IMG/VR virus record: IMGVR_UViG_3300031867_000003
Location: 64,001-128,000 of that record
Origin: a virus
Lineage: Duplodnaviria; Caudoviricetes
Length of the DNA stretch: 64,000 bases
Reading direction: 5' to 3' (one strand)
Under the pieces are notes generated by a model. It saw only the letters and a list, made by a program, of their open reading frames with translations, searched no databases and was not told where the DNA came from. This document shows, one piece after another, positions 9,174 to 63,800 of this stretch (its first letter is position 1; every line of letters begins with the position of its first letter). The position numbers and the translations under genes are program-made.

Positions 9174-9485
9174 ATGAAACCGGTTGATGTAATTAACACA
9201 ATCACTAATCTTGAGGCAGATGAGATAAAGGAACTTGCCGATATCCGTTCCGCCGAAGATATTAACGATAAAACTTTTGATAAACTGTATGCTCGCACAA
9301 GGTGGCATATTCAACACTCATTCGAAACAGGTTGGAATACTTGTTGTGATTTTCTATTGTCATGGTTCGATGATATGAAAACCACTCTCGAAGAAGAGGA
9401 TAACCCTGGAATTCTAACCCTAGATCAACTGATTCAAACAATTCGCAAGTTTAAACTTGGTGATAATGAGGTGGATGAGGGATGA
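9174..9485 (+). CDS. Hypothetical protein
   Basis: AAGGAGG RBS; ORF track. Confidence 0.7.
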   Translation: MKPVDVINTITNLEADEIKELADIRSAEDINDKTFDKLYARTRWHIQHSFETGWNTCCDFLLSWFDDMKTTLEEEDNPGILTLDQLIQTIRKFKLGDNEVDEG

Positions 9486-17543: not shown

Positions 17544-18746
17544 TTGTGTCTGCTTGCATCTGATGCTACTATAGATACATCATATATCCGTTCTCAGATT
17601 GATGATATGAACCGGAGAAAGAAGTATCTAAACAACCATAAGTATGCAATCACGCAAAATAAAGATGGGAAGTGGTACACATATTTGCCCGATCCCGTTA
17701 AGGGCAGAAAATTGTATAAAAGAAGTTCGAGAAAAGAATTGGAAGATATCATAGTAGAATGCTATGAAAAGTTGGAGTCACTAGGCTCAACGTTCGAAGA
17801 AGTGTATTTCATGTGGAGAGAATATAAAGATAAGATGGTGTCCGATAATACGGCAGTCAGATATGATACTGACTACGCCAGATGTCTCGAGGGTACTGAT
17901 TTTGTAAAGATGCCGGTGTCAGTAATTACTGAAGATGACATATCTGTATTTATAAAACAGCGGATCGAGTCCCTGAAGTTGCCGAAGAAAGCAGCCAAAA
18001 TGTTATTCGGATACATCCACAACACTTTGTTATTCGCTTGCCGCCACAAGCTGATTGACGAAGATGTGATGAGGTTCATGAAACCCGGCGAATTTTATGA
18101 GTACTGTGTGGCATCAAAAAGATCGCAAAAATCCCAGACTATTAGCGATGAGGATAATGCTAAACTTCAGGCATTGTTGAGGGATGACATACAAAACAAT
18201 CCGACTTACATTCCTCCATATGCCGTAGTACTATCTTCGCTGACCGGAATGAGAGTCGGCGAACTGGCTGCATTAACTTGGGACTGCGTATTCGAAGATC
18301 GTTTATTAATTAACAAATCAGAGAAGTATAATCGCAAGACCAAGACCTACTCAATTGAAGGTACTAAGAATGGTAAATCCAGGGTATTTCCAATGACCAA
18401 AGAAATTAAAGAACTTCTTTATAACCTCAAAAAGATCGAAATTGCCAATGGATTCTTAACTGAATACGTATTTAGCGGAGAATCCGGACGAATTCATACA
18501 AATGTAATATGTAGTTGTATTAAAAACAAATGCCGAACTTTAGGTATTACAGAGCGAGGAATTCACGCATACCGTAAAACACTGAACTCCAAAATGAGAT
18601 GTAGCGGTGTCTCGGCAACGGTTGCGGCGAGTTTGCTCGGTCACTCACCAGAAGTCAACGAGCAATACTACACGTATGATGTTGCAGATTTCTCGACCAA
18701 AACAAGTATCATTTCCGAATTAAATAAGAAGGTAATGGGGGAATAA
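17544..18746 (+). CDS. int: Tyrosine integrase (start uncertain)
   Basis: TGMRVGEL, TKN, HAYRK, LLGHS...YY catalytic motifs; adjacent to attP. Confidence 0.93.
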   Translation: MCLLASDATIDTSYIRSQIDDMNRRKKYLNNHKYAITQNKDGKWYTYLPDPVKGRKLYKRSSRKELEDIIVECYEKLESLGSTFEEVYFMWREYKDKMVSDNTAVRYDTDYARCLEGTDFVKMPVSVITEDDISVFIKQRIESLKLPKKAAKMLFGYIHNTLLFACRHKLIDEDVMRFMKPGEFYEYCVASKRSQKSQTISDEDNAKLQALLRDDIQNNPTYIPPYAVVLSSLTGMRVGELAALTWDCVFEDRLLINKSEKYNRKTKTYSIEGTKNGKSRVFPMTKEIKELLYNLKKIEIANGFLTEYVFSGESGRIHTNVICSCIKNKCRTLGITERGIHAYRKTLNSKMRCSGVSATVAASLLGHSPEVNEQYYTYDVADFSTKTSIISELNKKVMGE

Positions 18747-18779
18747 CGGGAATTATTTTTCCCCCATTTTACCCAAAAT

Positions 18780-19029
18780 TTTGTTACCTTTTGTTACCTG
18801 AAAGGTTTCGCTTGACAACTATCAAAAATAGTGCTATTATGCAAAATGTCCAAAGCCCAGTAAATACAAGGGTTTGAGGAATACACCGGGGTATGGCGTA
18901 GCTTGGTAGCGCGCTCGGCTGGGGGCCGAGAGTCCTTCCCAAAACTGTTTTAAAAACGCTCAAACCCCAGTAAAATCAAGGGCTGGCGCTCATTTTTGAT
19001 ATGGCACAAATTTGTTACCTTTGTTACCT
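18780..19029. other. attP: arm-type repeats around a 5' half of tRNA-Pro(GGG)
   Basis: Tandem (T)TTGTTACCT x2 at 18780-18799 and 19011-19029; CCCAGTAAA..CAAGGG repeats near 18856 and 18967; core CGGGGTATGGCGTAGCTTGGTAGCGCGCTCGGCTGGGGGCCGAGAG (18887-18932) lacks T-arm and 3' acceptor strand. Confidence 0.85.
18812..18840 (+). promoter_or_regulatory. SigA promoter upstream of the tRNA-Pro half
   Basis: TTGACA-17 bp-TATTAT with extended -10 TG. Confidence 0.75.
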
Positions 19030-19096
19030 CGCTTCAGAAAGGCAAGAATTGGATATATGATGAAAGTTATTTGTGCAATCTGTACAAATAAGTCGT

Positions 19097-19128
19097 AAAA
19101 AAAGGGGATACCAAATCGGTGTCCCCTT
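19097..19128 (-). terminator. Rho-independent terminator ending the late/lysis operon
   Basis: Minus strand AAGGGGACACC-GATTT-GGTATCCCCTTTTTTT. Confidence 0.8.
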
Positions 19129-19139
19129 AAATTATTTGA

Positions 19140-19313
19140 TTATATGTCGTTATCTTGTTGTGACTTATCTTTATTTTGTTCTATTATGGGTAATTCCCAT
19201 ACCCTCATTTCTTGGAATTCAATTATTTTCTTTAAGTCCGGTATCTCCGGAGTCGATTTTGTCGCTCTTTGGATTTTGCCCCAGTTGAGTAGCGGTCTCC
19301 ATTTATCACCCAT
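19140..19313 (-). CDS. Small hypothetical protein
   Basis: GGTGA RBS; overlaps the end of the holin; last gene before the terminator. Confidence 0.45.
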   Translation of the reverse strand: MGDKWRPLLNWGKIQRATKSTPEIPDLKKIIEFQEMRVWELPIIEQNKDKSQQDNDI

Positions 19314-19746
19314 TGACTTCACCGGGTTCTGTAATTACCTGAGTAGAAGCAATAACTTCCTCAGTAGTTGCAGGTTTTTTGTTTTCTTCTACAATCTTTC
19401 TAAGGATTTTAAGCGATTCATCAATCTATGTATCAATCCATTTAATTATATCTTCCTATGATGCTGCTTTATTTAAAATTGGCCATTGCTCGTACACGCG
19501 TTGCACAACTTGTGCCCTCTTAATACTTCCGGCTTTATTCCAAGCTTCATAATCTACTTCTGCATCACTTATGAGTTTTAACATAACTTCTCTAATCTAC
19601 GTTTTAACAATCTCAATTTTTTCTTCATCTGTTTTACCTAAGAAATTTTTAATCTTCGCAATAATTCCAAGTATTAAACCGATACATACTGCAATTGTAG
19701 TCCAATTCGTATTAATAAATTCCAAAAAATTCTGTAATCCCTTCAT
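19306..19746 (-). CDS. Holin-like protein (LL-H type), 3 TAG=Gln
   Basis: MKGLQNFLEFINTNWTTIAVCIGLILG..., N-terminal TM, 'DAEVDY...GSIKRAQV'; GGAGG RBS; ends TGA. Confidence 0.65.
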
Positions 19747-25577: not shown

Positions 25578-26078
25578 TTATTCCCGCTCTCCAAGAATTG
25601 CATCAATCATATTAAGTGTGTCGAAGCCGATGCGTTCGTCAATAGTGTCAATATAATCATCAATGTTAACTCCGTTATATTCGTATGTGTTTTGTTCCTT
25701 AAGGATTTCATCAAGTCGAGCATTAAGATCAGAAATTGCCTTCTGATATTCCTCAAGGTACTCATCTTTAACCTGAAGACCGTCTTTCATAACTTCGTTA
25801 CCGTCATCATCCACAACCGGATTGCCGGCTTCGTCAAGTTCCGGTAGCATTGTCTTGTTGGCATGAGTTTCATCAAAGTATACGTCGCGGATTTTCTGGA
25901 GTTCCGCATCTCTGAACTCCTCATACGCCTTTGTATCGCCACTCATTTTTTCAATAGCGCGTTTCAGATTCCACTTAATTTTGAGCGGAAGTTTATCCAT
26001 AGTTTCTTTATTATTAACAAGTTGGTTATAAAATGCTACACAGTTAACAGCCTCAACAACATACAAATTTTTCTTCAT
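25578..26078 (-). CDS. Hypothetical tail-region protein
   Basis: AAGGAG RBS before MKKNLYVV; ORF track. Confidence 0.7.
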   Translation of the reverse strand: MKKNLYVVEAVNCVAFYNQLVNNKETMDKLPLKIKWNLKRAIEKMSGDTKAYEEFRDAELQKIRDVYFDETHANKTMLPELDEAGNPVVDDDGNEVMKDGLQVKDEYLEEYQKAISDLNARLDEILKEQNTYEYNGVNIDDYIDTIDERIGFDTLNMIDAILGERE

Positions 26079-26149
26079 AATTATAATTCTCCTTTTCTTC
26101 ATAAATTTACATTCACATAATAATTAATCAATCAATCATCACTCAATCA

Positions 26150-27007
26150 TCACTCAGTTGTTTCGTCTCCATAGACGATATTCATAAATTCATCAATAGC
26201 AGCACTGCCGTCACCACCACCTTGTCCCGGAGTAGTTCCGATGTGTGGAAGGTTTGCAATCGCCGCACTATACAGTTCGGTATATTTTTCACTAGTCGCG
26301 GAATCAAAATCCATAGCAAATGAATAGCCGGCAACTTCATCCTTGGTAGTAGCACCGTTAATCAGTTCCTTCACTAGGGTAAGCCGGATATTATTAGCGT
26401 TAACAAACTGTTGCATAGCAAGATATACCTTCATAAAATCATCAACCGAGTAGTTAACTCCGTCATACGGCACAGTAGTAATTTTTCCATCACTGGAGAT
26501 AATCACACTATATAAGTTCATAATAGCCATCTGAGAATCCGGACTCATCGAGAACAGTTTAGATCCGGTAGATAATTCCGCATGAACTCCGGTCGTGACA
26601 GTATCGAGATAGTCCGCTTCCGCACGTTTAAGGTAGTAATCCTTTACCTCGGCAAGCGTCATGGTTTCGGGATCGACTACCGGGTTCACGACTTGATCGA
26701 TTCGTTCAATAATCTCCATGAGGTTCGCCTTAGTCAGTGCAACACTCATAGTTTCGGCGAATTTGCCTTCGCCCTCTACATACATACGTCCCAGATACGA
26801 TATCTGAGAGAACCCGTCAAAACACGTAAATGAACCGACTACCGTACCGTCCATATAGATATCGAGGCGCTTAATGTCGGTAAACGCGGATTTCACTGCT
26901 TCAAAATCGGAGCTCTGAACATACAGCACCATATCATTTTTAAACATATTGGAATCCCAACGGGATAATCTGAACGTTGTATTATTAACTCTAGCAGTAA
27001 TAATCAT
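26150..27007 (-). CDS. Tail-associated protein (DUF4376-like, possible chaperone)
   Basis: 'GVHAELSTGSKLFSMSPDSQMAIMNL...DDFMKVY'; start MIITARV follows the upstream stop. Confidence 0.6.
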   Translation of the reverse strand: MIITARVNNTTFRLSRWDSNMFKNDMVLYVQSSDFEAVKSAFTDIKRLDIYMDGTVVGSFTCFDGFSQISYLGRMYVEGEGKFAETMSVALTKANLMEIIERIDQVVNPVVDPETMTLAEVKDYYLKRAEADYLDTVTTGVHAELSTGSKLFSMSPDSQMAIMNLYSVIISSDGKITTVPYDGVNYSVDDFMKVYLAMQQFVNANNIRLTLVKELINGATTKDEVAGYSFAMDFDSATSEKYTELYSAAIANLPHIGTTPGQGGGDGSAAIDEFMNIVYGDETTE

Positions 27008-27008
27008 A

Positions 27009-27695
27009 TTATTCCACCACCTTCCAGCCGGCTGGATATGCTGCCGGACTCCAAACATTGTTGTCGATTGTCGATTCGTAAACAACACCTTCAAAAGTTA
27101 CTTTGTCGCCGGTCATATACGGATTGCCGGCATCGGGCTGTGTCCACTCGGGAATTTCTTCAGTCGGTTCCGGAGTGGGTTCCGGTTCTGGTTCGGGATC
27201 GGGTGTAGGTTCTGGATCTGGAGTTGGTTCCGGAGTCGGCTCGTCGCCACCCTCATCCTCAACAACTTCAAAGTAGTTACCGACTAACGAAGCAGCAGCA
27301 GCATAGAGCGGTTGACCACTGTCTCTCAGACACAAATAAAGGATTCCGTCCTCAGTGTAATAAAGATCCTTGACCACCGTGAGATTTTCATTATACGGAA
27401 TCGGGTCATCAATAGCGCCGCTATGAATTTCGTCAATGCGCTCCCACAGAGAAGCAGTAGCGGTGGACGGTTCCCAACCGGTTTGGCTCGTGTGAGCCTG
27501 ACGGCACTTCCACAGTTCGACCTCTTCGCCGGGTTTATAGCTAACACGTTTGCCTACTTCGTAATCAGTATCTGGTTTCCACCGTTCAACAAATGTTGCA
27601 ACAGACAATGCTGTCTGATCATCAAGAGTTTCAGTTACATATTCGAGGAGCTTGCGAAGTTCCTTTGCTTTAGCTGTAATATTACTCATAGTCAT
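27009..27695 (-). CDS. Carbohydrate-binding (CBM5/12-like) protein with PEPTPD linker
   Basis: 'WKCRQAHTSQTGWEP', 'YMTGDKVTFEGVVYESTIDNNVWSP'. Confidence 0.75.
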   Translation of the reverse strand: MTMSNITAKAKELRKLLEYVTETLDDQTALSVATFVERWKPDTDYEVGKRVSYKPGEEVELWKCRQAHTSQTGWEPSTATASLWERIDEIHSGAIDDPIPYNENLTVVKDLYYTEDGILYLCLRDSGQPLYAAAASLVGNYFEVVEDEGGDEPTPEPTPDPEPTPDPEPEPEPTPEPTEEIPEWTQPDAGNPYMTGDKVTFEGVVYESTIDNNVWSPAAYPAGWKVVE

Positions 27696-27876
27696 CTTCC
27701 TCCTTTGTTTGGTCTAAATCTCCCATAATGGTATTAGTGAACATGTTTAATTCATCTGCCTGTTTTGCAACAAGCTATTTTAATTCTTCATTTTCAGCCC
27801 TTAGATTTAACATCATTACACGTTCCTTCGGCGACATTGTTCTGGGCTGATAAAAAATCTTTCCGTTGCTACTCAT
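27682..27876 (-). CDS. Small coiled-coil protein, 1 TAG=Gln
   Basis: MSSNGKIFYQPRTMSPKERV...EELK*LVAKQ; ends TAA. Confidence 0.5.
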
Positions 27877-28906
27877 AATATTTCATCCTTTCATCATACC
27901 AATGTTGTAACTTTGTTATTAGCTAATGATTATTTCCCTTGCTCATAAATGACAATCTCGCGGTTTTACTATCCTCTATACATTGTTTCGTCCGTTCGCC
28001 TTTGGCGTACATTTTCATTAGCTTTTTCAGAATATATTTAAACTCCCTAACCGATTGACTTCGCGGGAACTATAACACCTTGCCCGTGTCAGTCACTCTC
28101 CACTAAAATCCTATGAACTCAATTCCTTTGGCTAGAGTAGTAATATGTGTCTTGTCTTCATGAGGAGTTAAACATAATTTATCCAATTCTTTTGTGATCT
28201 CATCCAGACAATACTTTAAATATTCTTTATCCTCATGAATCAGAACCATGTCATCCATAACACGAATATAATCTTTGATATGAAGTTTCTCTTTAATAAA
28301 ATGATCGAGACCGTCAAGCAGACTTATACCGGCAATTTGTACCATTTGACTTCCCGGATTATATCCGGTATCACCTTCATACTATGCGTCGAGAATTTGC
28401 GCCACAATTTCATACGCATCCGGTTCTAATTTTTTACGAAACATTTCCTTTACAATATTATGCTTCATTGACGGATAATATTTCTTTATATCAATTTGCA
28501 AAATATACCCGTCGGTTCCATGGTTAATGTAAAAGCGTCGAAGTTGCTTGCGGAATAAATCCAAGCAATAATCTATTCCTTTACCTATTTGACATGCGCC
28601 ATTCTCTTTAATAAACGATTTTGACATTGTCGGATATAATATCTTGTCATTAAGTGTTCTCTGCCAGACTCTGTCTCGATATGATATTGCCAAGATATCT
28701 CTTGGTTTTGGTTTTGTTACCTAGAAAGAAACAGGAGCTTGAGACTTATATTCACCACTTTTCAGTTCATTGGAAAGCTATAGGATTTCTTCAAATCCGT
28801 GGAGTGAAAATCTCGCAACAGAGTCCTTCCATATGACTCCTTGTTGCGCTTTTAAATGACTTTCATATAAAGCCTCAAAACTCATGACTTCTTCGATTGC
28901 ATTCAT
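27794..28906 (-). CDS. DGR reverse transcriptase (370 aa in code 15; 7 TAG)
   Basis: AGGAGG RBS; 'KPRDI...YRDRVWQR', 'ACQIGKG', 'LQIDIKKYYPS', 'GYNPGSQMVQ', 'YIRVMDD', 'IEFIGF'. Confidence 0.93.
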
Positions 28907-29081
28907 AAATACAACCTCCTTTTTCTTGCTGTAATAGTGCGGCCGGTTCACCGACAACACATCAGCAAAATATTGTTTAGTATGGGAGTACCGCACCCAC
29001 ACAGGGTTATAAACTCCTTGCAACCGGGATTCTTCATTCTGCGACATATACGCATGTATTTTTATAAAATCCCGTCTCCAA

Positions 29082-29184
29082 TCGACAGCGAGGCGATTAG
29101 CGTTGTTCGGGTTATTGTTGTTCACATTACCAGACGAGTTCACATTACCCTCGTTATTGTTCCCGAGCCATGCCGAGCGAACCC
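29082..29184 (-). repeat. DGR template repeat (TR)
   Basis: 103-nt AAC/AAT-rich copy of the VR; all 17 differences from VR are at TR adenines. Confidence 0.97.
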
Positions 29185-29220
29185 GCCCCAGCACATTAAT
29201 AGCTTATAACCCAAATATAA

Positions 29221-29670
29221 TTATTTTAAGTTCTTGTACCTCTTGTAGTCATTGTCTTTCCATCGTTGTAACTGATTGCGCACCAGAACTGTTTGCTGCG
29301 TCCAATAAGTATACCGTTTTGGCGGTAGGTGAAAAATTGGTGCGCTCAGTTCTATAAGTGCAAGAAGTTCATTGCATTTTGAAGTACTTTTGTCTTGCAA
29401 ATTTCTTCTATGCCGATAATTATTCTTATTCAGAAACGTGGAGTTTGCAGAATATGCACTCATATATAAATCCAGTACCGTTTCGCGGATCTTTGCGACC
29501 AGTTCCGGCTGTGGTGGATTTTTCTTATCCTTTTCTGCGTCACCACAAGGTACAACCTTAAAATTATTGTTGTTCTATAAAATCGTCAGAGTATAAACGC
29601 ATAATTTTTTCGCGTTTATCAAACCTTCAAGTTGCGATTCGTTACGTTGTTCCTTAGGTACATTTGACAT
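29221..29670 (-). CDS. avd: DGR accessory variability determinant (Avd-like), 1 TAG
   Basis: 149-aa basic helical protein between VR and TR; 'MSNVPKEQRNES...ANS...RRNLQ...W...D.KRY'. Confidence 0.85.
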
Positions 29671-29701
29671 TGTTTTAGTCCTCCTTTTATTCCTAGAAAA
29701 A

Positions 29702-29723
29702 TAGGCACTCTTACGAGCGCCTA
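29702..29723 (-). other. DGR target-recognition hairpin downstream of VR
   Basis: TAGGCGCTC-GTAA-GAGTGCCTA just after the target stop codon. Confidence 0.75.
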
Positions 29724-29737
29724 TTAATGATTATTGA

Positions 29738-31237
29738 TTATATAATTGCGCAAGCGACAGCGAGGCGAATAGCGTAGTACGGGTAATTGCCGTTCACATA
29801 ACCAGACGAGTACACAAAACCCTCGAAAACGCTCCCGAGCCAAGCCGAGCGAACCCAATATGTTTGTGCAGAAGTAGTAGCATTTACCTAATATTTTTTT
29901 AACACCTCATATGTTCCGCTTGCCACGGTCTCTTCACTTTCAAGCAGTTCTTTATAATACTGGAACGGAGTCCCGTCCACCGTTGATATATTAGTAGCAT
30001 TCTTCAAATTCATTTCATGATGTGACGGCATCCAGAATTTATCATATGTATAATCAGTTCCACCGCCCATATAATTAGGCTCTTTTGTGGTAATCTTAAT
30101 CGGATGAATAGCGTTAACCAGATCACTGGATATATAGCTCTCAAATCCTAATTTATTATCATATCCGCTCGGCATTACATCACATTCGTGTTGTGCTTGC
30201 CACCATCCAGTTCCGGAATTATTTAGGTATTGCCTAGCACAACTATACTTCCAACTATTTGTTCCATAGCGAATAGCGTTAACCTAGTTCCATAATGTTA
30301 CAAACACCTTGTCATAATCTTCGTATGGAATAGTATCACCGACACTCAGATTAAGCGCGGTATATACGGTACCTTCTGCCGTATATCCATAGTAATAATG
30401 ACCGGCAGACGCTGTTTGCTCAGTAGCTTCAGTTTGTTCCGGCGCGTCAAATATCACTGTATCATGGTTTAAATATTCCATTATGAGAATTGGCACATTA
30501 TCGTAAGTTGTGCCGTCCTAAAGTTCCACTGTCTAAAAATCTGCCACAATCCACGGATTGGCATATTCAGTAGTACCAATTGTATACGTGTCGTTAATTA
30601 CGTCACCTACATTAAAATATTCATTTGCCCTACCGGTTTTTGCCACTTGTATCATCTTTTCCCAGGTGTCGGGAATAATATCCGCAACCGTTACCGGCTA
30701 AATAGCAGTCAGAACATACGGCTCTGTCCCGGTATATGTAAGAGTTACGTTTTGTGAACCCAGCGTTGACAGAATTGCAGGAGTAGCTGTATATTCGTTA
30801 TCCGATAAAATTCGTGTTTCACCGGTACTCCAAATCAGGGTTACTACCATACCGGTTTTATCAAATGTATTTCCGACTTCATATTCGGTTTGCGTTGGCG
30901 GAGTAGTCACAGTGATTGCGGTAGGGTAGGAGATATCCGGCAACTCAGCCACGCCATTATTTACCACGCTTACTCCACCAATTGTTACGTCCGAAATAGT
31001 TCCGTCCTATATAGCCTATATAGCATCACCCGTAGCCTTAGCATCGGCAGCTTGCCCGGTAGTACTCAGTGTAGCGTCAATATCTGGTGCTAAATTATTA
31101 ATTAACGTTTTAAGAACGGCACCGGTTACTTTCCGGCTGCCGCTCGTTGTTTCTATCATAAACACATCCGCATCATTAATTGTCGAGGCGGCTGTGAGAT
31201 TAGTTATCTTTTTTACTCCGTTTACCTTAATAGACAA
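29738..31237 (-). CDS. DGR target protein: Ig-like domain + C-terminal DUF6273/CLec-like domain (499 aa, several TAG)
   Basis: Single frame; 'ITVTTPPTQTEYEVGNTFDKTGMVV' (Big-like); ends 'YWVRSAW...RLAVACAII'. Confidence 0.9.
29754..29856 (-). repeat. DGR variable repeat (VR)
   Basis: Colinear with TR; encodes the last ~34 aa of the target. Confidence 0.97.
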
Positions 31238-34200
31238 TAAAATCATCCTCCTCTCCAATTGCGTATCCGTCGTCGGTTACGATAATAAAATTGTCATTTG
31301 ATGTGATGGGTGATGAGGGTACATGTTGATATGCGTCATCATTGTGTTTCCAGTAGGTTATTTCTACATCGGAGTTTGAATTGCTCCAGATGGTATTTGC
31401 GCCACGTAGGGTGGTGAGAGTTTGGGGGTCGATGGGGTAGACCGTCGGCGAATATACCTCACGAACAAGTTGAATATTATTATCAATAAACCATTGTCTT
31501 GCTGTATCTGCTGTTAAGGGTGTTTCAGAATGAATAAGAGTATGAAATCTATTAGATTGATTGAGTAATACATAATCTAATTCGTATCCAATCTCTAATG
31601 TACTAGACTTCTTATATCCGTATGATAATTTTGAACACATACTATTATTTGAAGATCCATATCCTTTTCCACCAACTCCACCAAATCCAACTTCATAGTA
31701 TCCATTACCTAAATCATTAAAAAGGTTTGTTTTGTTTAAATAAACATACTCTTTCCATGTTTCCACAATCTCCCCATTAATCAAATCCACATATCCGCCA
31801 TAGATTGTTTTAGGAAATGGAATAGTGATAAATGTACCGCTTGTATCATAAGGTGTAGGAGATGAACCATATTCAAGCTGTAATTCAATGCCCTTAGTTG
31901 TATTATGATATTCACATCTCCAATAATATGCATCTTCTTTTAATGTGAATGACCTATAAAATCGTCCTGGAGTGTATTGAGATGTCCATGTCATAGTCCA
32001 ATAATCAATTTGTGTTTTATCTTTACGATAATATCTTATTTTATTAGCATAGTTTGCTGAACCTACAACCACTGTTCCTTTTGGTATATGACAATATGCA
32101 AAACCATCTTCATCTGGATTTTCAGCATCTAATAAATTTCTATCTACTCTTGCCATAGTTATAGAATCCCATCCCTCAATGGGACAAATGTTGGAGTAAG
32201 GTTCATAACTAGTCGCGGAACTACCAGATTCTAGCTGATAGTTATATAAAGCAAGAGAAGTAGTAGAACCATTCTTTATTACAAATAATCTAATATCTTT
32301 TTCTTCTTCAATAGTAAAAGTTAATAAATTTGAATTTGCACTACTAACCATACCAGTATCATCATTTTTAGCAATTACATCCGCCGTTGTATTAACAGAA
32401 AATGTATATGTTCCAGCTTTTAAATGAATAGATCCATTTGGGGTTGATGAAGACACGGTGCCACCAAAAACAATAGCTCCATTATTTTCTTCGAAATTAT
32501 TTTGATCCAACAAATTCTTCCCACTTCCCCCAATCCACGGCTTATCATACCCATGGAGGTCTTGCTTCGGCAAAAACCATACCTTACATTCCTTCAAATC
32601 CGCCGCCATATCCGTACCAAAGCTAATAATACTGTTTTTGGCGGTCACTGTATGCGGCGTCGCTGTAAAGATATTTTTCCTGGACTCTATTGGATCAAAC
32701 ACCCCGATGTAATCATATTCGATTTCAATGCGGTCGGCATTGCTCCAGAAGTTGTTGTCGAACATGAGGGTACTTAGGGTGGTGGGGGAGAGTTGGTGAG
32801 TAGTGTAAAAACTATCATTAATAAATGGATAGGCAATATAATGACCAGCATATTTTGTTTTAAACTCTTCCACGGTTGACACCGTACTATCATAAATATA
32901 CATTGATGTCCCTTGAAATGTACCATCAGCAGTTGCAGTAGCATTTTCTAAACAATCGCATAATATCTCATTTGAAGCTTTAACACAGTATCCTTTTCCT
33001 GATACCCAATGTCTTAATAAAAAACGATGTAACCATGGCTCACCAGCACCAGAAGATTTTTCAATACTTGAAAATTCGCTCATATCTCGTCTTTCCCAAG
33101 TTTCCACCAATTCTCCGCTCACCAAATCTACATACCCACCATACACAGTCCCAACATCCTCGGACCAATCAATATCATAGCGGTTGACCGCGGGGCCGGT
33201 GACAAATTCGCCAGTTCCAGAATTGGTGTAGAATTGACCGGAGACCGCATCATACATTCCGGCGACTTTGTCAGATTTGCGGTAACAAGGGATAAGGTTA
33301 AATGCCAGATTTTCACCGTCATATAATGCAATTGAGTAACATTTGCAACCAAACATATGAGTTGAAGCACCGTCTGCAAAAAGTTGAACAGGTTTAGTTG
33401 ATTTAATACTGTTTGTATGCGTTGCTGTATATGTTTTGCCATTAACGACCATTGTTTTCTCGTTACTATCAAGATTATAGGTTGCTTCAAAATTATATTT
33501 TGTATCTACTGTGCTACTGTAAGCGTCCGTAGTCACATTAGTTTCACTCGATTGATACTCCCTAGAGTATCCAAAAAACTTGTATTGATAGATGCCAACA
33601 ACAAAACGTCCTGTTCTAGTATCCTGATTTCCAATCAAATCGCGTTCAGATGATATAGTCTTTGTTGTGAAATCAGCCAAAATCTTTATATTCTCTGTTT
33701 GCACATAATAGTTCGTATCTATATACTGCGTCCCTGTACTCTCCAAATATTCAACCTATTGATACTCCTTCGGCAATGAAAGGTTGGTTTTATAGGGAGT
33801 ATATTCGGTAGCTTCTGAGCCACGTTCAAGTTGAAGATTATAAATTCTATTTACAGCAGTTTTTGACGCATTCCCAAAGCAATTAAGAGATAGATTAATA
33901 CAGAAATCTTCTTCTGCCGTAAATGTTGTTGTAATATGACCGCTATCGTTACTAGCCTGTGGAATAGTCTTATATGAAGCTGTCCATGCCAAAGATGGTT
34001 TTCCAATAATACATGGTCTCCAATAATAATTTCCAATACCATTTATATAATCAAATGATAACGTATACGTACCAGGTGGAAGTAAATTGTCATAAACGAA
34101 TACGCCTATATCTCGTTGACCGGAAATAATAGTTCCAGATAATTCACCACTGGCAAAAATCATATCATTTGGTTCGGTTTTAACATTAGATGGATGATGA

Positions 34201-34439
34201 TAACTATTTATATTTGTTTCTAATAAATTCTTCCCACAATGATTTACCTCAACCCCAGTCCAACCGCTAATCGGCCGCACATTCTCAGGACTAGGAGTTC
34301 CGCTCCCTTCTTGCTTCGGACTAAAATATACCTTAAAACTACGTATTCTCTGGCTTCTGGGAGTGTAAAAATTCAAAAATTCCCCCGATAAAATCTTCGT
34401 TTTATCATTTGTCATAATTTCGTTCGTTACGTCTGCCAT
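31227..34439 (-). CDS. Mosaic tail fibre/receptor-binding protein (1070 aa, 1 TAG)
   Basis: ORFs 33756..34439 and 31227..33746 joined by 'EYQ*VEYLESTGTQYIDT'; repeated 'YGGYVDLxxGExVETW' boxes. Confidence 0.8.
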
Positions 34440-34966
34440 GATGCCACACTCCCATAAGTTGCATTCTCAATGCTGATTGCGTATGTATAACCGGATTCAA
34501 TCACAAACCATTCGGGCATTTTGACAGTTGCGGGAAGAGTAAGAGTCGGAACAGTAGTACCGGCAGAAAATATTACTTCAGTGACACCTTCGCTTGGAGG
34601 AGTGAATGTTAACGAAGTAACCTCACCACATACATAGCGAGTGTTGGGGTTAGCTGTGATAGTAGGAGTAGTTCCCGTCACATTTATTTCAATACCGTCT
34701 TGGAAGCTATCGGCTACTACAGCTTTAACATCGGACTCGGTCTAATAACCGGCTCCGTTAGTTAACTGATTATTATTAGTAGGAATTGCCGCTTCAACTC
34801 TGTTAATCTCATCATCAACGTAAGTAGTAGTAGAATAACCGGCACCGTTTGTTAGTTGATTATTATTAGTGGGAATCGCCGCGTTAACTTCGGTAATTTC
34901 CCCATCTATATATTGTTTTGTTTTCTAAAGAGATGCTTGCAATTGATCTAATGTCGTAATTGCCAT
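34427..34966 (-). CDS. Tail-associated protein with IPTNNNQLTNGAGY repeats, 2 TAG
   Basis: GAGGTG RBS; MAITTLDQLQASL*K... Confidence 0.75.
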
Positions 34967-35004: not shown

Positions 35005-36003
35005 TTAAGCTTTATATTTGTTGTACGATGTACGAAGAGTAGTGTCATCCAAACAAATATAAGCAGTAGTAGTATTAATATTGGAATGTCCCATAAGCTT
35101 TTGGATTTCATGAATATCCATACCGCGTTTAGATAAGTTCGTTGCAAATGTACGTCTCATGCGGTGAGGGTGTGCATTGTCCACGTTCGCACGTTTAGCA
35201 AGTTGGTTAAGAATAAACCTAACTCCGCCGGAATTTAACGGCTCATGATTGTGATTATAAAACAACATATTACCGGTTTCCGGGCGGTTATTCAGATAAT
35301 AACTCACGTATTTAACAGCCAAATCATTAGTATAAACCATTCGCTCCTTTGCACCTTTGCCGTGGCGAACATGAACGGAATAATCTATTAGATTAACATC
35401 GGTAGTTTTCATAGCAGTTAACTCCGATACCCTGATTCCGGTACTTAACAACATTTCAATTAACGCTCGTTCCTTCGCTGTTTTACATGCACACCGAAGA
35501 GCGTCAATTTCGACGTCGGAGAACGGTTTCTTGATTTCATCCGTATATTTTACCGGTTTAAGTTTGGCAATCGGATTCTTATCCAATATATCTTCATTAG
35601 TCATCCACTGGAAGAATGCGCTTAGATTTGCCCTGGTATTTTCAAGAGTGCGATTAGATACCTTTCTATCTTTCTCCATCGCTAGGAACATTCGTATATC
35701 ATAAATTCCCATCTCGGGAAACGGTTTATTAATTCTATCAGATAGTTTCTTTATGGTTCTGATATACTGATAGATAGTATTTTGGCTTTTACCTTCAATA
35801 ACTAGACAACCAATATAGCGGCTGATTAGCCTGGTATTAGTGTCATCGAGCGGAACAATTTCCGTGCAACGCTCAGTTACCTCATAGTCATTCAGTGTGA
35901 GAATAACCGTATCTGAAATAACCGATAGTTGCTCGGAAGTAAATAATCCGCATAATTTATTTTCAATTGTTTTAACTATTTCCATGCGATAATCCATTGA
36001 CAA
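35005..36003 (-). CDS. XerC/D-like tyrosine recombinase within the tail module (no TAG)
   Basis: STGIRVSEL, HGKGAKER, HPHRMRRTFAT, LMGHSNINTT..Y. Confidence 0.95.
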   Translation of the reverse strand: MSMDYRMEIVKTIENKLCGLFTSEQLSVISDTVILTLNDYEVTERCTEIVPLDDTNTRLISRYIGCLVIEGKSQNTIYQYIRTIKKLSDRINKPFPEMGIYDIRMFLAMEKDRKVSNRTLENTRANLSAFFQWMTNEDILDKNPIAKLKPVKYTDEIKKPFSDVEIDALRCACKTAKERALIEMLLSTGIRVSELTAMKTTDVNLIDYSVHVRHGKGAKERMVYTNDLAVKYVSYYLNNRPETGNMLFYNHNHEPLNSGGVRFILNQLAKRANVDNAHPHRMRRTFATNLSKRGMDIHEIQKLMGHSNINTTTAYICLDDTTLRTSYNKYKA

Positions 36004-36036: not shown

Positions 36037-36066
36037 ATTATAGCATAAGAAGGATTCTAATGTCAA
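36037..36066 (-). promoter_or_regulatory. Consensus SigA promoter for the tail-module recombinase
   Basis: Minus strand TTGACA-18 bp-TATAAT with extended -10 TG. Confidence 0.8.
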
Positions 36067-57806: not shown

Positions 57807-60800
57807 TCAGTGTCCGGCTTTTCTCATATCTTTAGCTATTTCTTTGGTAGTATAGTTATAAATGTTCTTTTTAAATGATGCATTGCTCATTAATCCCTTG
57901 GCAATTTCTTCTAACTGTGGCACTATGGACTGATCCGCGTTGCCGTCAATTCGAATAAGATTGTCATAGTGGATGGTGATGTTCTGATTTGTGCTATGAT
58001 TAATATTATATTCCGGTGTCTGGAAGTTAGGTGTCTAGACAGGCACCATTCCAGATTTAGCCATAGCCATAAGGTTCTCCGTAAGGTCTGCCGGGATAAC
58101 TCCGTCTCCGGCTTTTAACGGCATTAACATTACACCACGACGGGTGATAATAGCTTCCGGACCCTTTTCGTTGATTTGATAAAGCCCCGGCTTCGCGGAT
58201 TTCGTTCCTTTCGCAAGACCGCCACTAAGATATTCTTCTCCTAGTTTACCGCCACTGAAATCACCGTTTATGAGTAATTGTCTAAACATGTCATTAAGAT
58301 CGCCGACCTGCTCGCTGATTTTTGTCGCCTCGGATTTCATAGCTTGCCAATAGTCGTATTCTTTTTGAGAAAGATTATCTTTATAAATGTCTAATTTCTT
58401 GCGTATATTACTGCTACTAAGATTAACTCCTTCAACATATTTATACTATACATCGAGATCTTCTCCGACCATCTATGGAACACCCATATTTTGTTCGCCC
58501 TAGAAGGCATCGGGGTGGAACGACTTAAGATAAGCATTAAAAGAAGCATTTACGTTACCAAGTGAAGCTTTAAGGTTAGTGGCAGAATCAACTACAAGTT
58601 GTGCCGCATGGTCAATATTTATAGATAAGTCTTTTACAAACTTCTCATAATTTTCTTGAAGTTTTGCTGAAAGATCGGTTAATCCGTCAATACGGAGATT
58701 TACTATATGATCTTTGACAGTGTCATCAAGTTCTTCTTGCATTTCCGCACGTTGTGCTTCAAGGCGAGCCTTTTGAGCACGGCTCTCGGCATCAGTTCAT
58801 TTATATTCACATGGTTCGCTACACCATGCCGTGTGAGATATAACCAATGGTATATCCACACTGCTCATGCTTTCACATGAGATTAGACTATATCATCTAT
58901 GGAAATTTTCCATAGTCTGTTGTTTCGAATTGCCAGCTTGCAATCCTACGTCCCTACACTCATCGGGACTAGTCGTTGAACGTTTCCTAGTATGTCTAGA
59001 ACTTCGCTGCTGATTGCCCAATATTTATCATTTTTAAACTATCGTAATTATTTATTATCACTGTAGTGATAAATCTCTAAGGGTTTCCCAGCAATTAAAC
59101 AGAATGCCCAATATAATTAGGCCATTTAGTGCGCGGATTTGCTGTTCGATAAGCTGCACATCTTTATTTTGCTTGCGTAGTTTCTTATCGTAATCGTACA
59201 TCTCTTTCTTTTTATTTATCTCATTTTTCCGGGCTTCAATAAGTTTGTTAATATAAGTAATTTCTGTTTGATACCTATCGGTTACATCCTTAATAATCAC
59301 CTGTCTCTGAGACGCGAGAGAAGTAATTACATCGCGAGATTGCGCTTCATATTCTTTCATTTTGGAGTTATATGTTTCTATATCAAGAGACGGATCTTCT
59401 CTTAACCGATTAGTAAGCACTTGTTGAGCTGTTCGAATTTTTGTAAACTAATCTTGTAGCATTTTATAGCTACGAACATCCATTGCGTATTTTGCAGTAC
59501 CAAGTTCAGTAAAGGTGCCGTCGGTCGTATACATCATTTCCGGAGAAATTGTTCCTTTGAGCTAATCTAAGGCTTTATGTACGGTGTCAATATTTTTAAT
59601 CATATCTTCCAAAGGTTTGAAATATACATCTTGCCTCATATCATCATATAAATTATTGATTTCTTCATCTAATTTATATACTTCTATATTAGCCTTTTGT
59701 ATATTTGCCATCATTGCTTTGTGCGCTTCGGAGTTCTCCAGAATTGTTCCGGCTTTAACATAGCTATCTAATAACTCCTGCTGGGCTTTCGCCTAATTTG
59801 CATATGCTTTTTGAGCGTCTTTTAATCGGTCGATTTGTCCTTCATAGTTGCTCTTCAAAAAGTCAATCGAAGAGTTCTTCTTGATAGTTGCTTTTCCGGA
59901 TTGATCATAAGAATAGCTAATTCCGTCAGTCAGTAATGTCGTGCGAGGTATATTGGTATTTCTGACGTATTCTCCGTCTTCATTCTTAGTAGCAATATAA
60001 TATCCTTTATCTACCGAATAAACAACTCTTGATTCACCGACTTTTTTTCCATTGGTCTTGAATGTCGGCTATGTGCTATTAAGTTGGTCGGGAGCAATAT
60101 AATATCCGCGTTCTTTCCATACTTTACGTATTTCTTCGCGGCGATCCGCCCAGGTTTTGGATAAATTAACGGCCGCTTGATACCAAGACTCGATATTATC
60201 CATCTTTTCCTATGCGATCTTTTGCTCGCGCTCTGCAACTTCAACCGCAGACTAAATGAGTTCTTCCCTCATTTTTTGCTCTTGTTCTCTGGCTTGACCG
60301 AGAGCGCCGGTAACATTTTCCAATGATGCCGTAGCATTATTCCATAACGCAACCGCCTCCCCAAGTTCGTTAGACACTCTTGTCGGATCTATTTTCCAAC
60401 CGTTATTTAAAGCTTTATTAATAAAATCTTTTTCTGATTTGGAAGCCTTTTTATACGCGTCATTGCTCAATATAGATTTCTTTGCTTTGTCGGATTCTTT
60501 TTTTAGCGAAGCCTATTGAGATGCAAACTGGGTTGTTATTTCCTATTGTTCCTCTATAGCGATCCGGCGCTTTTTCAATTCCTCTTTCAGCTAACGCATT
60601 TCCTTATCAATGTTTTCATTTTGCGCTATATAACTCGGCTTATTAAGAGAGCTTTCCATAAGTACATTAGCCTATCCATAAGAAGTGTCTTGTAAATTTT
60701 TCAATTCGTTTTTGTCGGCTCGGTTCTATTTTCTAGCGGCCTAATACGCTTTATCCGCACTATTCTTGGCGGTTTTGGCAGCTGCTTCTTTTTTGATTTT

Positions 60801-63800
60801 ATTATTGTAATCATCGACAAGCTTTTTGAAATAAGGCCCCCTATTTTTATTATATGGAATAAGTTCACCTTTTTTCATTGCGTTTAGTATTGAATTTTTA
60901 TCATTCTTCGAAACTTTTTTATTTGCTTTAAGATAATTTTCTAATTCAGTTTTGGATTTCTATGTTAAATCTTTGCGGCTTTCATATTTACTTTTGGCGT
61001 CATTATAATTCTATAACTTAGTGGCTCTGTCAGCTGTAGACTTAGCTACCACATCTTTCTATGCTTTTACCCCCGTGGCAAATTCTATCCAGCGCTGCGC
61101 AGACGCAATGCCGGATTTTCCGCCGGAAATTGCACTTGTTATTCCGGAAATAGTATTGATTCGGTTCTCAATTTTATCAAGCGCCTTCTCTAGCTTTTCG
61201 GTCGGTAGCTAGATAATCTGGCTCTGAAGATCTCTCATTGTATTCGCAAGTTCTTGTATCGCATTATTTGCGTCGCGAGATTTATTAATATAATCGAGAT
61301 ATGCGCGAGCGCCTTCAACAAAAGCGGCCTAATTAGGATTGGTCGTCTCTATTTGTTCAAGATTATATTTGCCTTCAAGTAAATCTTTTTGATTAAATTT
61401 GCTCCAGATATTTACTGTCTGTTTGTTTCCGTCTTTGTCCGTATAAACATAGGCTTTTGCTAATTCTTCGGCGAAATTTTTGTATGTCGTCGCGGCGCGA
61501 GAGTTGGCTTTAATTTCATTCTGGAGTGCGGTAACTTCGCTGCGAAGAAGTTTCCCCTTAGTTGCGTTGGTCACATAATCGGTAATCTTGTCGGCAATTT
61601 TCTTCGTTGCGTCAGCAAAATACTGAAGACGAAGTTCAACGTAATCGAATATTTCTTGGGAGAATTGAGGTTTATCGGCATTGTCATTGTTATTATTTCC
61701 GGCATTGTTGTTACCGCCACCACCGGTACTTGCTTGCTAATTGCCACTACCGACATTTACGTTGTTATTATTGCCGGTAACAGTTACTCCGGATTGCCCA
61801 CCACCGCCACCGGTCCATGTAAATGTTCCGCCGCCATTACCGGCATGAGCATTCATTCCATTAACTGTCCCTTTCGCAAATGCGGATGAGCCGCCAATTA
61901 TACGTGCGTGGCTAGATGTACGACCTTGTTTAAGAAGATCTTCCGTTTGTTTGTGATTAAATCATATATGTTTTTCTCAGTTCGCTACGCTGAGAAGGAA
62001 TTATTATAATTCCCTCATAGTTTCCTATGAGATCAGACTATATCATCTACTCAAATAGAAGAGTAGTTTACCGTTTCAAGGGTCAATAGCTTACCCCCTA
62101 CATGATAGTCGTTGAACCTTATTCTATTCGAATCTTGGCTGCTGATTACCAAATAATAATATTTTAAAAACTTTCACGATTATCTATATTTCATAATTTC
62201 GTTGTAGTTATTATTCTCTAATGGTTTTCCAGCAATTAGATAAATTTTTCAATGTATGTTGCCATACAAAGTCGCATAATTAATACGACGTCGCCCCTCT
62301 TAAGGTTTTCTATATGTGGTCCACCAGGAACGAGGAACCATTTGCCGTTTCTTATGATTGATTCCGTTCCCAATTCATTAATCAAGCTTTCTTGGTCTTT
62401 GTCTATTGCGATGTCACCTTTTGCATATCCACTCATATCTTTGTAGTTAAGCATATTATATGCGCTACCGGATTTTGCTACCTTGCCTTCTTCGTCAAAC
62501 GTGCCTTTTGCATAACCTCGCCCTATTGATGAGAGAGTACCAGAATATGAAGCAGCATTTTCTGCTTTACCAGGTTTATTAACTTTGCCAGGTTTATGCG
62601 AAGCACTAGAACTTGCACTCTAACTTGGCTTCACAACAGTACCAGTAACAGTAGCACTAACATGGGCACTAATACTAATGTTGGCAATCATAGCACGAAT
62701 TCTACTTACTGCACTTTGCGCAGCGCTTATTGCCCTATCTGCATTACCGTCAATTGTGATTCTGGCGGTTCTTCCATTCGCAGACGCAACCGCTTGATTA
62801 ATCGCACTAATTGCGCCAGAATTATTGCCATTAATGGTAATTCTACCGGAACTTGAGTTAGCATGAGAAACCGCAGTAGCTATTGAACTCATTGCCTAAG
62901 AGTTGTCTCCACCAATTGTAATTTTGGGGTTTGCATCTTCAACAGTGGAGACCACTTCTTCCACAGAAGAAATAGCCTACTCATTATTAGCCTAAATATT
63001 TATAGGTTCAGAGGCAGATGATTTGATATTATCAACCGCAGTTTGGATTGCCTAAACCTGTGAAAGAGCGCCGGAAGTTGTTATGTTTAATGCTATATTC
63101 TGGGCAGCAGCTTTAACTCTGTTAATTAACCCAGATAATGCACTAATCTAACCGGCTGCCTAACTGGTATTTGCAGTAGTTGTAACTGTTTCTGTTTTTG
63201 TTTGCGTCTAATCTTTATTTCCGCCAAATAAACCCGAAATAGCATTTTTTGCTTTTTGAATTACTTCAACTATAGTAACTTTTTTTGTCGCTGGTTTTTC
63301 CGCCTATGCTTGAATTTCATCCTAGCCGGTAGCTTCAAGTTTAACTTCCTTTGTGTACTCCTCGCCATTAATCGCAGCACTAACAGCTTCATTAATCCCC
63401 TAGAGAGAACCCTCGTCTAATTTGACGGGCATAGATATTTCTTTTCCGTCAATAGAATTAATCATTGCTTCGGCGGTTTCCACATCAGATGTATCTATGT
63501 CCAAAGTGGCGGAAAGAGTTCCATCATTCATCGATTGCTATAATTCTTCTAATGAACCGCCATCTTCAAGATACTGTTCTATTGCAACTCGCACGTTATA
63601 CTCCTGTTGGGTCTTTGCTTCAAGCTATTCAAGCTATGCAAGTGCTTCTTGTCCGCCTTCTTCTTCGACATTGATTTGCGCTTTCATTTCGGATATTTCA
63701 GCTAATTTATTCTAAAGTTCATCAACACTCATCGAAGCGGCATCGAATTGAGTAGCCCCCTCGAATTGAGTACCTTTAAATAATGCTTCAACCTTGTCGG

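Follow-up and report, generated by a model that had tools for sequence, protein, structure and literature searches.

A complete diversity-generating retroelement in the TAG-recoded late gene block of a 202-kb phage genome

Composition of the retroelement cassette

A stretch of 64,000 nucleotides, comprising bases 64001-128000 of the 202,175-bp virus record IMGVR_UViG_3300031867_000003 and referred to below as the window, was analyzed for a putative diversity-generating retroelement (DGR). Coordinates without further mark are window positions, while record positions are marked 'genome'. All elements of a DGR were located on the minus strand, in the order proposed by a first-pass annotation of the sequence: a target gene with a variable repeat (VR) at its 3' end, a hairpin, avd, a template repeat (TR), and a reverse transcriptase (RT) gene.

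31237..29738, minus strand: DGR target gene, encoding a tail-fibre/receptor-binding-type protein of ~499 amino acids, with 7 in-frame TAG codons
29856..29751, minus strand: VR, a 106-nt repeat of the TR that forms the last ~35 codons of the target gene
29725..29700, minus strand: hairpin with an 11-bp stem, a GTAA tetraloop and a T-run (DNA fold, centroid structure)
29670..29221, minus strand: avd, 149 amino acids, with a single TAG (codon 32) and an AAGGAGG ribosome-binding site upstream
29184..29079, minus strand: TR, with 29 adenines and 13 AAY codons in the VR frame
29078..28907, minus strand: non-coding spacer between TR and RT, presumed to be part of the DGR RNA
28906..27794, minus strand: DGR reverse transcriptase, 370 amino acids, with 7 in-frame TAG codons and an ATG start following AAGGAGG

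Under the standard bacterial code (code 11), the region from 27.8 to 31.3 kb yielded only open reading frames (ORFs) of 60-138 amino acids. Reading of TAG as a sense codon resulted in three clean minus-strand genes, whose 15 interruptions under code 11 (7 in RT, 1 in Avd, and 7 in the target) were all TAG, with no TAA, TGA, or frameshift. These counts matched those previously reported for RT and Avd and replaced the earlier 'several' for the target. The expectation that a standard annotation would call the RT a pseudogene was justified insofar as code 11 breaks this gene into fragments of at most 138 amino acids. For the target gene, a TTG at 31237 with a well-spaced GGAGG was taken as the start; the alternative is an ATG at 31246.

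Only one TR and one VR were found in the whole genome. Their alignment extended over 106 nt, instead of the 103 nt indicated by the first-pass annotation, and contained the 17 differences noted there, all of which were located at TR adenines (12 A>T, 4 A>G, and 1 A>C). The hypergeometric probability that 17 out of 17 mismatches would fall on 29 adenines among 106 positions was 2.7e-12. Codon positions 1-2 accounted for 16 of the 17 changes, and the changed codons comprised 12 nonsynonymous cases versus 1 synonymous case. None of the 77 non-A positions of the TR differed from the VR. The last retrohoming event would therefore have been recent, and the TR/VR comparison points to a DGR that was recently active in this genome.

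TR and VR share a GC-rich 3' end (CGCCTCGCTGTCG), beyond which the two sequences diverge, and the hairpin is situated ~25 nt downstream of the VR. This structure is the predicted target-site hairpin of the DGR and may also function as a terminator. At the sequence level, both cis elements of a DGR, an IMH-like (initiation of mutagenic homing) GC-rich VR end and a downstream hairpin, were present. Folding of the RNA comprising TR and spacer gave a z-score of -2.2, and the presumed role of the spacer as a part of the DGR RNA follows the Bordetella phage BPP-1 system.

The predicted RT matched phrog_1423 (reverse transcriptase; E = 2.5e-74) and the Pfam family RVT_1 (32.8 bits versus a cut-off of 29.6). 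Its closest solved relative was the bRT of a Bordetella phage (8ub7, E = 7e-17), while tblastn matches comprised DGR RTs of gut Firmicute phages (Faecalibacterium phages, nd4, and nd12) and of Bordetella phages. The catalytic motif is VMDD, the SQ typical of DGR RTs occurs within GYNPGSQ, and the ORF is intact only if TAG encodes glutamine. Upstream of its ATG, the RT frame remains open through the whole TR, in a VR-like frame (28906-29194), and ORF finders fuse the TR to the RT, yielding a 466-aa ORF in which the match to the PHROG RT profile starts at residue 12. Avd was recognized by a PHROG profile only (phrog_3206, 'Avd protein of DGR', E = 4e-9 over residues 18-148), since searches of Pfam, NCBIfam, and PDB sequences gave no match for this protein.

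The target protein combines an N-terminal fibre motif, a Big_3 Ig-like domain (E = 3e-6) and a C-terminal DUF6273 domain (E = 7e-11; Pfam). Residues 300-506 were modelled with AlphaFold2 from 36 homologues, which gave a pLDDT (predicted local distance difference test score) of 91.7. In VIA-align comparisons, the model matched the DUF6273-type domain of 9qa6, an IgA peptidase from Thomasclavelia ramosa, with a Z-score of 13.5. Further matches were weak (Z 2.5-3.4) and nearly all involved C-type lectin-like domains, including TvpA (2y3c). A Foldseek search of the model against the PDB retrieved only 9qa6 and no lectin. DUF6273 has been assigned to the C-lectin fold and is a known DGR target in gut phages, with the VR at its C-terminus (PMC10743442, PMC11792537). 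Consistent with this assignment, the model predicts that the tip of the target is a C-type-lectin-like (DUF6273) ligand-binding domain whose C-terminal end is encoded by the VR. Every DGR-defining feature that could be tested in silico (RT, TR/VR pair, target fold, Avd, and cis elements) was thereby found at this locus.

Amber recoding of the late block and its candidate decoder

Coding density of the genome was 0.68 with code 11 versus 0.86 when TAG was read as sense; reassignment of TGA or TAA was rejected, because both gave lower coding densities than TAG. The TerL gene contains 11 TAG codons, and glutamine was the consensus residue at 8 of the 11 corresponding columns in 120 homologues. 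In addition, TAG aligned with CAA or CAG in the TerL genes of two relatives (L023 and L024), whose terminase translates under table 11. Because TAG columns of TerL are glutamine in homologues and CAA/CAG in these standard-code relatives, the sequence comparison firmly indicates that TAG is read as glutamine. Its use differed between three blocks of the genome:

0-83 kb (genome), plus strand: early block, 96 ORFs, TAG share of glutamine-type codons 0.06
83-172 kb (genome), minus strand: late block (terminase, portal, tail, and lysis genes), 59 ORFs with 302 TAG codons, TAG share 0.27
172-188 kb (genome), minus strand: 15 ORFs, TAG share 0.02

As a terminator, TAG was used by 2 of 90 early ORFs. 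Stop-codon-recoded gut phages with a late-gene bias were reportedly described by Ivanova in 2014. In the three DGR genes, TAG represented 15 of the 49 glutamine-type codons (0.31) versus 287 of 1052 in the rest of the late block (Fisher p = 0.62). The DGR genes are thus recoded because the cassette sits in the late block, and their TAG share is not above that of their late neighbors. All four tyrosine recombinases of the genome are TAG-free, and neither a release factor nor a serine recombinase was found in the genome.

An ordinary, intron-less tRNA with anticodon CUA [tRNA(CUA)] was not found in the genome. ARAGORN with option -i returned a single tRNA(CUA) candidate (genome 165002..164685, minus strand; L008:685-1002), which measures 87 nt without its insert. 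It is encoded on the same strand as the DGR, ~36.7 kb past the window end, within 480 bp of non-coding sequence that follow the portal gene. The 231-nt insert splits the candidate between anticodon bases 2 and 3, is preceded by U and ends in G, and matched the Rfam group I intron model at 29.7 bits (E = 2e-5), below the gathering score. The candidate has an A1.C72 mismatch and G73. In control runs of ARAGORN -i, 10 shuffled versions of the genome and the reversed genome gave zero tRNA calls. Based on these sequence features, amber decoding probably depends on a phage tRNA(CUA) spliced from a group I intron-containing precursor.

Two further odd tRNA-like genes, at genome 12087-12168 and 14050-14141 (L002), scored above the Rfam tRNA cut-off. 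One of these has a 17-nt anticodon loop and a 5' acceptor/D-arm sequence in common with the split tRNA(CUA), while the other combines a 25-nt D-loop insertion with a 4-nt anticodon loop.

The mobile-element load of the virion module is high. At least five group I introns above the Rfam gathering score were located in the late block (window 58864-59128 and 62014-62294; genome 133970-134255, 152742-153093, and 156204-156481). As giant virion ORFs are interrupted or separated by these introns, some exceptionally long ORFs obtained with TAG as sense would be intron-joined artefacts or split genes. The same block also holds a transposase-like gene (phrog_1157) and an HNH/homing-endonuclease fusion (genome 147752-149395 and 160605-162173), and a GIY-YIG endonuclease is encoded at genome 169934-171085, two genes upstream of the terminase. 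Within the recoded block, three consecutive genes just downstream of the RT (25578-27695) are TAG-free and encode a CBM_5_12 protein, a 314-aa tail-fibre-like protein, and a 174-aa protein. These three genes may be recent imports from standard-code phages.

Related cassettes, locus variability and phage lineage

An orthologous cassette with 76% nucleotide identity, comprising recombinase, target, Avd, TR, and RT, was identified in a 70.6-kb Logan contig (L096). Its target (482 aa), Avd (149 aa), and RT (387 aa) genes contain 11, 1, and 6 TAG codons, respectively, at sites that mostly differ from those in the present genome. In the RT of L096, the conserved glutamine of GYNPGSQ is encoded by TAG. 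Similarly, Gln8 of the Avd described here corresponds to a TAG (codon 8) in L096, whose Avd has lysine at the position of TAG32. All 14 TR/VR mismatches in L096 were at TR adenines (p = 2.5e-9), and the hairpin with its GTAA loop is conserved. When the VRs of the two genomes were compared, 21 of 33 TR-A sites differed versus 12 of 73 sites elsewhere. Together with the A-only TR/VR differences, this divergence of VRs at A sites points to DGR activity in the lineage, and mutagenic retrohoming may be ongoing.

The TR of L096 (10012-10117) contains an in-frame TAG (AAC TAG AAC), which is mirrored in the VR (9331-9436; TAC TAG TAC) and whose central A is at a mutable position. In a standard-code DGR this codon would be a stop; the template itself has therefore adopted the code of the phage. 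Two more distant cassettes, both with an A-biased TR/VR pair, differed in their coding. The RT of L010 is 62% identical and belongs to a standard-code cassette, while L011, with a 43%-identical RT, is TAG-recoded, which means that DGRs of one type work under either code. With TAG translated as glutamine, the avd-TR-RT segment of L011 forms a single 612-aa ORF.

In addition to the DGR, the locus contains two features further upstream:

35005..36003, minus strand: tyrosine recombinase, 332 amino acids, TAG-free (Phage_integrase, E = 5e-38)
36037..36066, minus strand: sigma-70-type promoter match (TTGACA-18-TG-TATAAT) in front of the recombinase

The recombinase is located within the recoded tail module, ~3.8 kb upstream of the DGR target in the present genome, and abuts the DGR target in L096. 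Two ENA contigs (L018 and L019), with ~79-89% nucleotide identity in aligned blocks, carry a 91%-identical recombinase that is followed almost directly by a CBM_5_12 gene, with no DGR. Since the CBM_5_12 gene of the present genome lies just downstream of the RT, window 34895..27705 represents an indel of ~7.2 kb. It contains a 179-aa gene and a 1070-aa gene, both called fibre-like, as well as the DGR cassette. Sequence comparison thus characterizes this locus as a variable receptor-binding-protein site beside a tyrosine recombinase. The promoter in front of the recombinase, which is a consensus match only, agreed with the consensus at 12 of 12 positions and was the best and only perfect site in a scan of 27.5-36.3 kb. 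No terminator-like site was found between the recombinase stop codon and the next gene. In principle, the recombinase would be expressible by host machinery independently of a code switch.

Pfam marks of the SPbeta-type YonB/D/G/J families occur among TerL neighbors in relatives, and the polymerase of the present genome is of the PolIII-alpha type. The label SPbeta-like is based on these precomputed marks in relatives and on this polymerase, as a Pfam search of the genome's own TerL neighbors gave no Yon-family match. Terminase relatives were found in gut Bacillota bins, and distant ones (~42% identity) were found inside large contigs and in a complete Coprobacillaceae chromosome. TAG was absent or almost absent from TerL in relatives whose contigs measure 211 kb to 3.2 Mb, and the standard code is used by relatives with 70-73% TerL identity. 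Since the integrated relatives that were found are standard-coded, the lineage has no documented recoded prophage.

The record itself is a stand-alone virus with a mid-genome integrase and no host flanks. It has no direct terminal repeat, and only a 77%-identical paralogous stretch links its head and tail. A search for an attP site or partial tRNA beside the mid-genome integrase gave no tRNA-like Rfam match in window 18700-19350. The term 'prophage', as used in the first-pass annotation, was not appropriate for this free record of 202,175 bp, whose integrated relatives are standard-coded. A temperate lifestyle is plausible in view of the four TAG-free tyrosine recombinases and the distant integrated relatives.

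Timing of mutagenesis and comparison with known systems

By analogy with Bordetella phage BPP-1, a complex of RT and Avd would reverse-transcribe the RNA of TR and spacer with adenine-specific infidelity. The resulting cDNA would then replace the VR, guided by its GC-rich 3' end and the downstream hairpin, as proposed from the same model system. Such replacement would diversify the C-type-lectin-like (DUF6273) tip of the tail-fibre-type protein. In the proposed scheme, the carrier is a 202-kb SPbeta-like phage that infects gut Bacillota, and the cassette belongs to its late module of virion and lysis genes, in which TAG stands for glutamine. Synthesis of RT, Avd, and target would then have to await the onset of amber decoding in the infected cell. 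The decoder would be the phage tRNA(CUA), which would first have to be spliced out of its group I intron-containing precursor.

The first-pass annotation had suggested that amber read-through gates the complete DGR machinery and that the genetic code acts as a switch on mutagenesis. The first element of this proposal was retained, as RT, Avd, and target are untranslatable unless TAG is decoded. Because these three proteins need amber decoding, it may soundly be concluded from the sequence that mutagenesis would be confined to the phase in which the code is switched. A DGR-specific switch was not supported, as the TAG share resembles that of the late neighbors. The same confinement holds for the terminase, portal, tail, and lysis genes, and nothing singles out the DGR. 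Timing by the code is a corollary of the published model in which recoding regulates late and lytic genes (Borges 2021 preprint, bioRxiv 10.1101/2021.08.26.457843; PMC7886860) and demonstrates no new regulatory principle; the DGR of L010 is standard-coded. We therefore consider it likely that the locus encodes a canonical, complete, and recently active DGR, the timing of which is a by-product of block-wide recoding and not a switch specific to the DGR.

Several observations weigh against parts of this interpretation. No near-identical genome of the locus was found when IMG/VR and JGI metagenomes were searched with TR-derived patterns that carried N at A positions. Scans based on the RT gave only relatives at 43-62% identity, and no DNA relative of the locus was found in the named phage collection. 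In an alignment with L010 and L011, the RT motif GYNPGSQ has a G directly before SQ, instead of the usual GxxxSQ spacing. The cloverleaf of the tRNA(CUA) candidate is odd, with a class II-like long variable arm, a 5-nt D-loop, and TGC in the T-loop, and the match of its insert to group I introns is below threshold. Moreover, TerL-portal regions of four relatives (L021-L024) contained no tRNA(CUA), with or without intron, and no similarity to the tRNA/intron region. Finally, gut Bacillota are a presumed host, suggested by binning and integration of relatives, and the lifestyle is likewise presumed.

An alternative explanation is that the phage is temperate and that selection favored TAG codons in the three DGR genes as a dedicated lock, which keeps mutagenesis off in lysogens and on only in the lytic phase. 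The four TAG-free tyrosine recombinases and the integration of distant family members in Bacillota chromosomes would fit such a lock, as would a published proposal in which recoding keeps the lytic and lysogenic programmes apart (10.1101/2021.08.26.457843). In addition, the recombinase promoter is on the same strand as the cassette, with no terminator before the next gene, so that host-driven read-through into the cassette is conceivable, which TAG codons would neutralize. However, TAG shows no significant excess in the DGR genes over other late genes (p = 0.62), a related DGR (L010) is in standard code, the integrated relatives that were found are standard-coded, with no recoded prophage of the lineage documented, and the record is not in integrated form. 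We therefore regard a dedicated lock as unlikely. A joint proposition states that, in temperate SPbeta-like members, the code difference locks RT and Avd silent in lysogens even if transcription by the host from the recombinase promoter were to enter the cassette, and that the DGR co-evolved with the code. This proposition is tentative, and we are inclined to doubt it.

If TAG were instead read by the host, either by a host suppressor or because the host uses code 15, temporal gating would not occur. No canonical suppressor tRNA was found in the phage, and recoded phages without a detectable suppressor have been noted before (PMC7886860), both of which are in line with decoding by the host. 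However, the sharp contrast in TAG use between early and late genes of one genome is hard to explain if TAG is always sense, and the phage does have a tRNA(CUA) candidate. Relatives at 70-73% TerL identity are standard-coded and the bins that contain relatives are ordinary Bacillota. Altogether, reading of TAG by the host is very improbable. Decay of the DGR, with TAG codons as true nonsense mutations, the RT as a pseudogene, and the A-specific differences as a historical footprint, would agree with the fragmentation of the RT under code 11 but is scarcely credible, since 15 of 15 interruptions are TAG, with no other stop or frameshift, TAG represents glutamine genome-wide, the L096 cassette is intact under the same code with TAG at other positions that include the conserved SQ glutamine, and TR and VR show zero non-A differences.

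The interpretation as a canonical DGR is in line with its likeness to the prototype of Bordetella phage BPP-1 (mtd-avd-TR-brt). Both systems have the same order of target/VR, hairpin, avd, TR, and RT, adenine-specific TR-to-VR differences, an AAY codon design, and a VR that encodes the C-terminal end of a C-type-lectin-like receptor-binding domain, and the bRT of BPP-1 (8ub7) is the best solved relative of the RT. In contrast to BPP-1, all three proteins described here are encoded with TAG as glutamine, the target domain is DUF6273 and not Mtd, the RT has VMDD and 'PGSQ' instead of IGNxxSQ spacing, and the carrier is a 202-kb SPbeta-like phage of Bacillota.

RTs of Faecalibacterium phages Lelie, Toutatis, and Brigit and of phages nd4 and nd12 (PMC11792537, PMC10743442) are homologous to the present RT at 29-39% identity, and the targets of their DGRs likewise consist of DUF6273 with the VR at the C-terminus. 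Unlike these phages, which have genomes of 33-62 kb and include several known prophages, the cassette described here resides in a recoded 202-kb genome. Neither publication mentions recoding in these phages.

Amber suppression in DGR RT genes has been reported for Zeta crAss-like phages, in which seven RT genes show this feature, hampering DGR detection (PMC12386605). Those phages use suppressor tRNAs, and their DGR cassettes, like the present one, are located in the reverse-oriented virion block of a large gut phage. Differences concern the lineage, which here has SPbeta-type YonB/D/G/J neighbors (in TerL relatives) and a PolIII-alpha-type polymerase, the presence of avd, which is absent from most Zeta DGRs, and the intron-split suppressor candidate. 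Amber codons in DGR RT genes were thus already known, and this DGR adds a case from another phage lineage. Novelty is limited to minor points: the TAG in the template of a relative, the TAG at a conserved RT glutamine, and the cassette indel by the recombinase.

Consistent with observations on recoded gut phages (PMC7886860; 10.1101/2021.08.26.457843), most TAG codons read as glutamine lie in structural and lysis genes, TAG rarely serves as a stop, and early genes and integrases are standard-coded. The Borges preprint (10.1101/2021.08.26.457843) contains no occurrence of DGRs, retroelements, or reverse transcriptase, and Yutin 2021 (PMC7886860) contains none of 'DGR' or 'reverse transcriptase'. 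DGR surveys that use code 11 miss such cassettes or 'pseudogenize' them, so that the prevalence of DGRs in recoded gut phages is probably underestimated.

Comparison of loci with and without the indel indicates modular movement of the cassette next to a tyrosine recombinase of the tail locus. The L096 sequence further shows that a DGR template can hold a reassigned stop codon as a sense codon. If the central A of this TAG were mutagenized like other TR adenines, glutamine, leucine, serine, or tryptophan would be possible at this position, which is beyond the reach of AAY codons. The mutagenic machinery would be subject to the code switch of the phage like any late gene, which would limit when diversification of receptor binding can occur.

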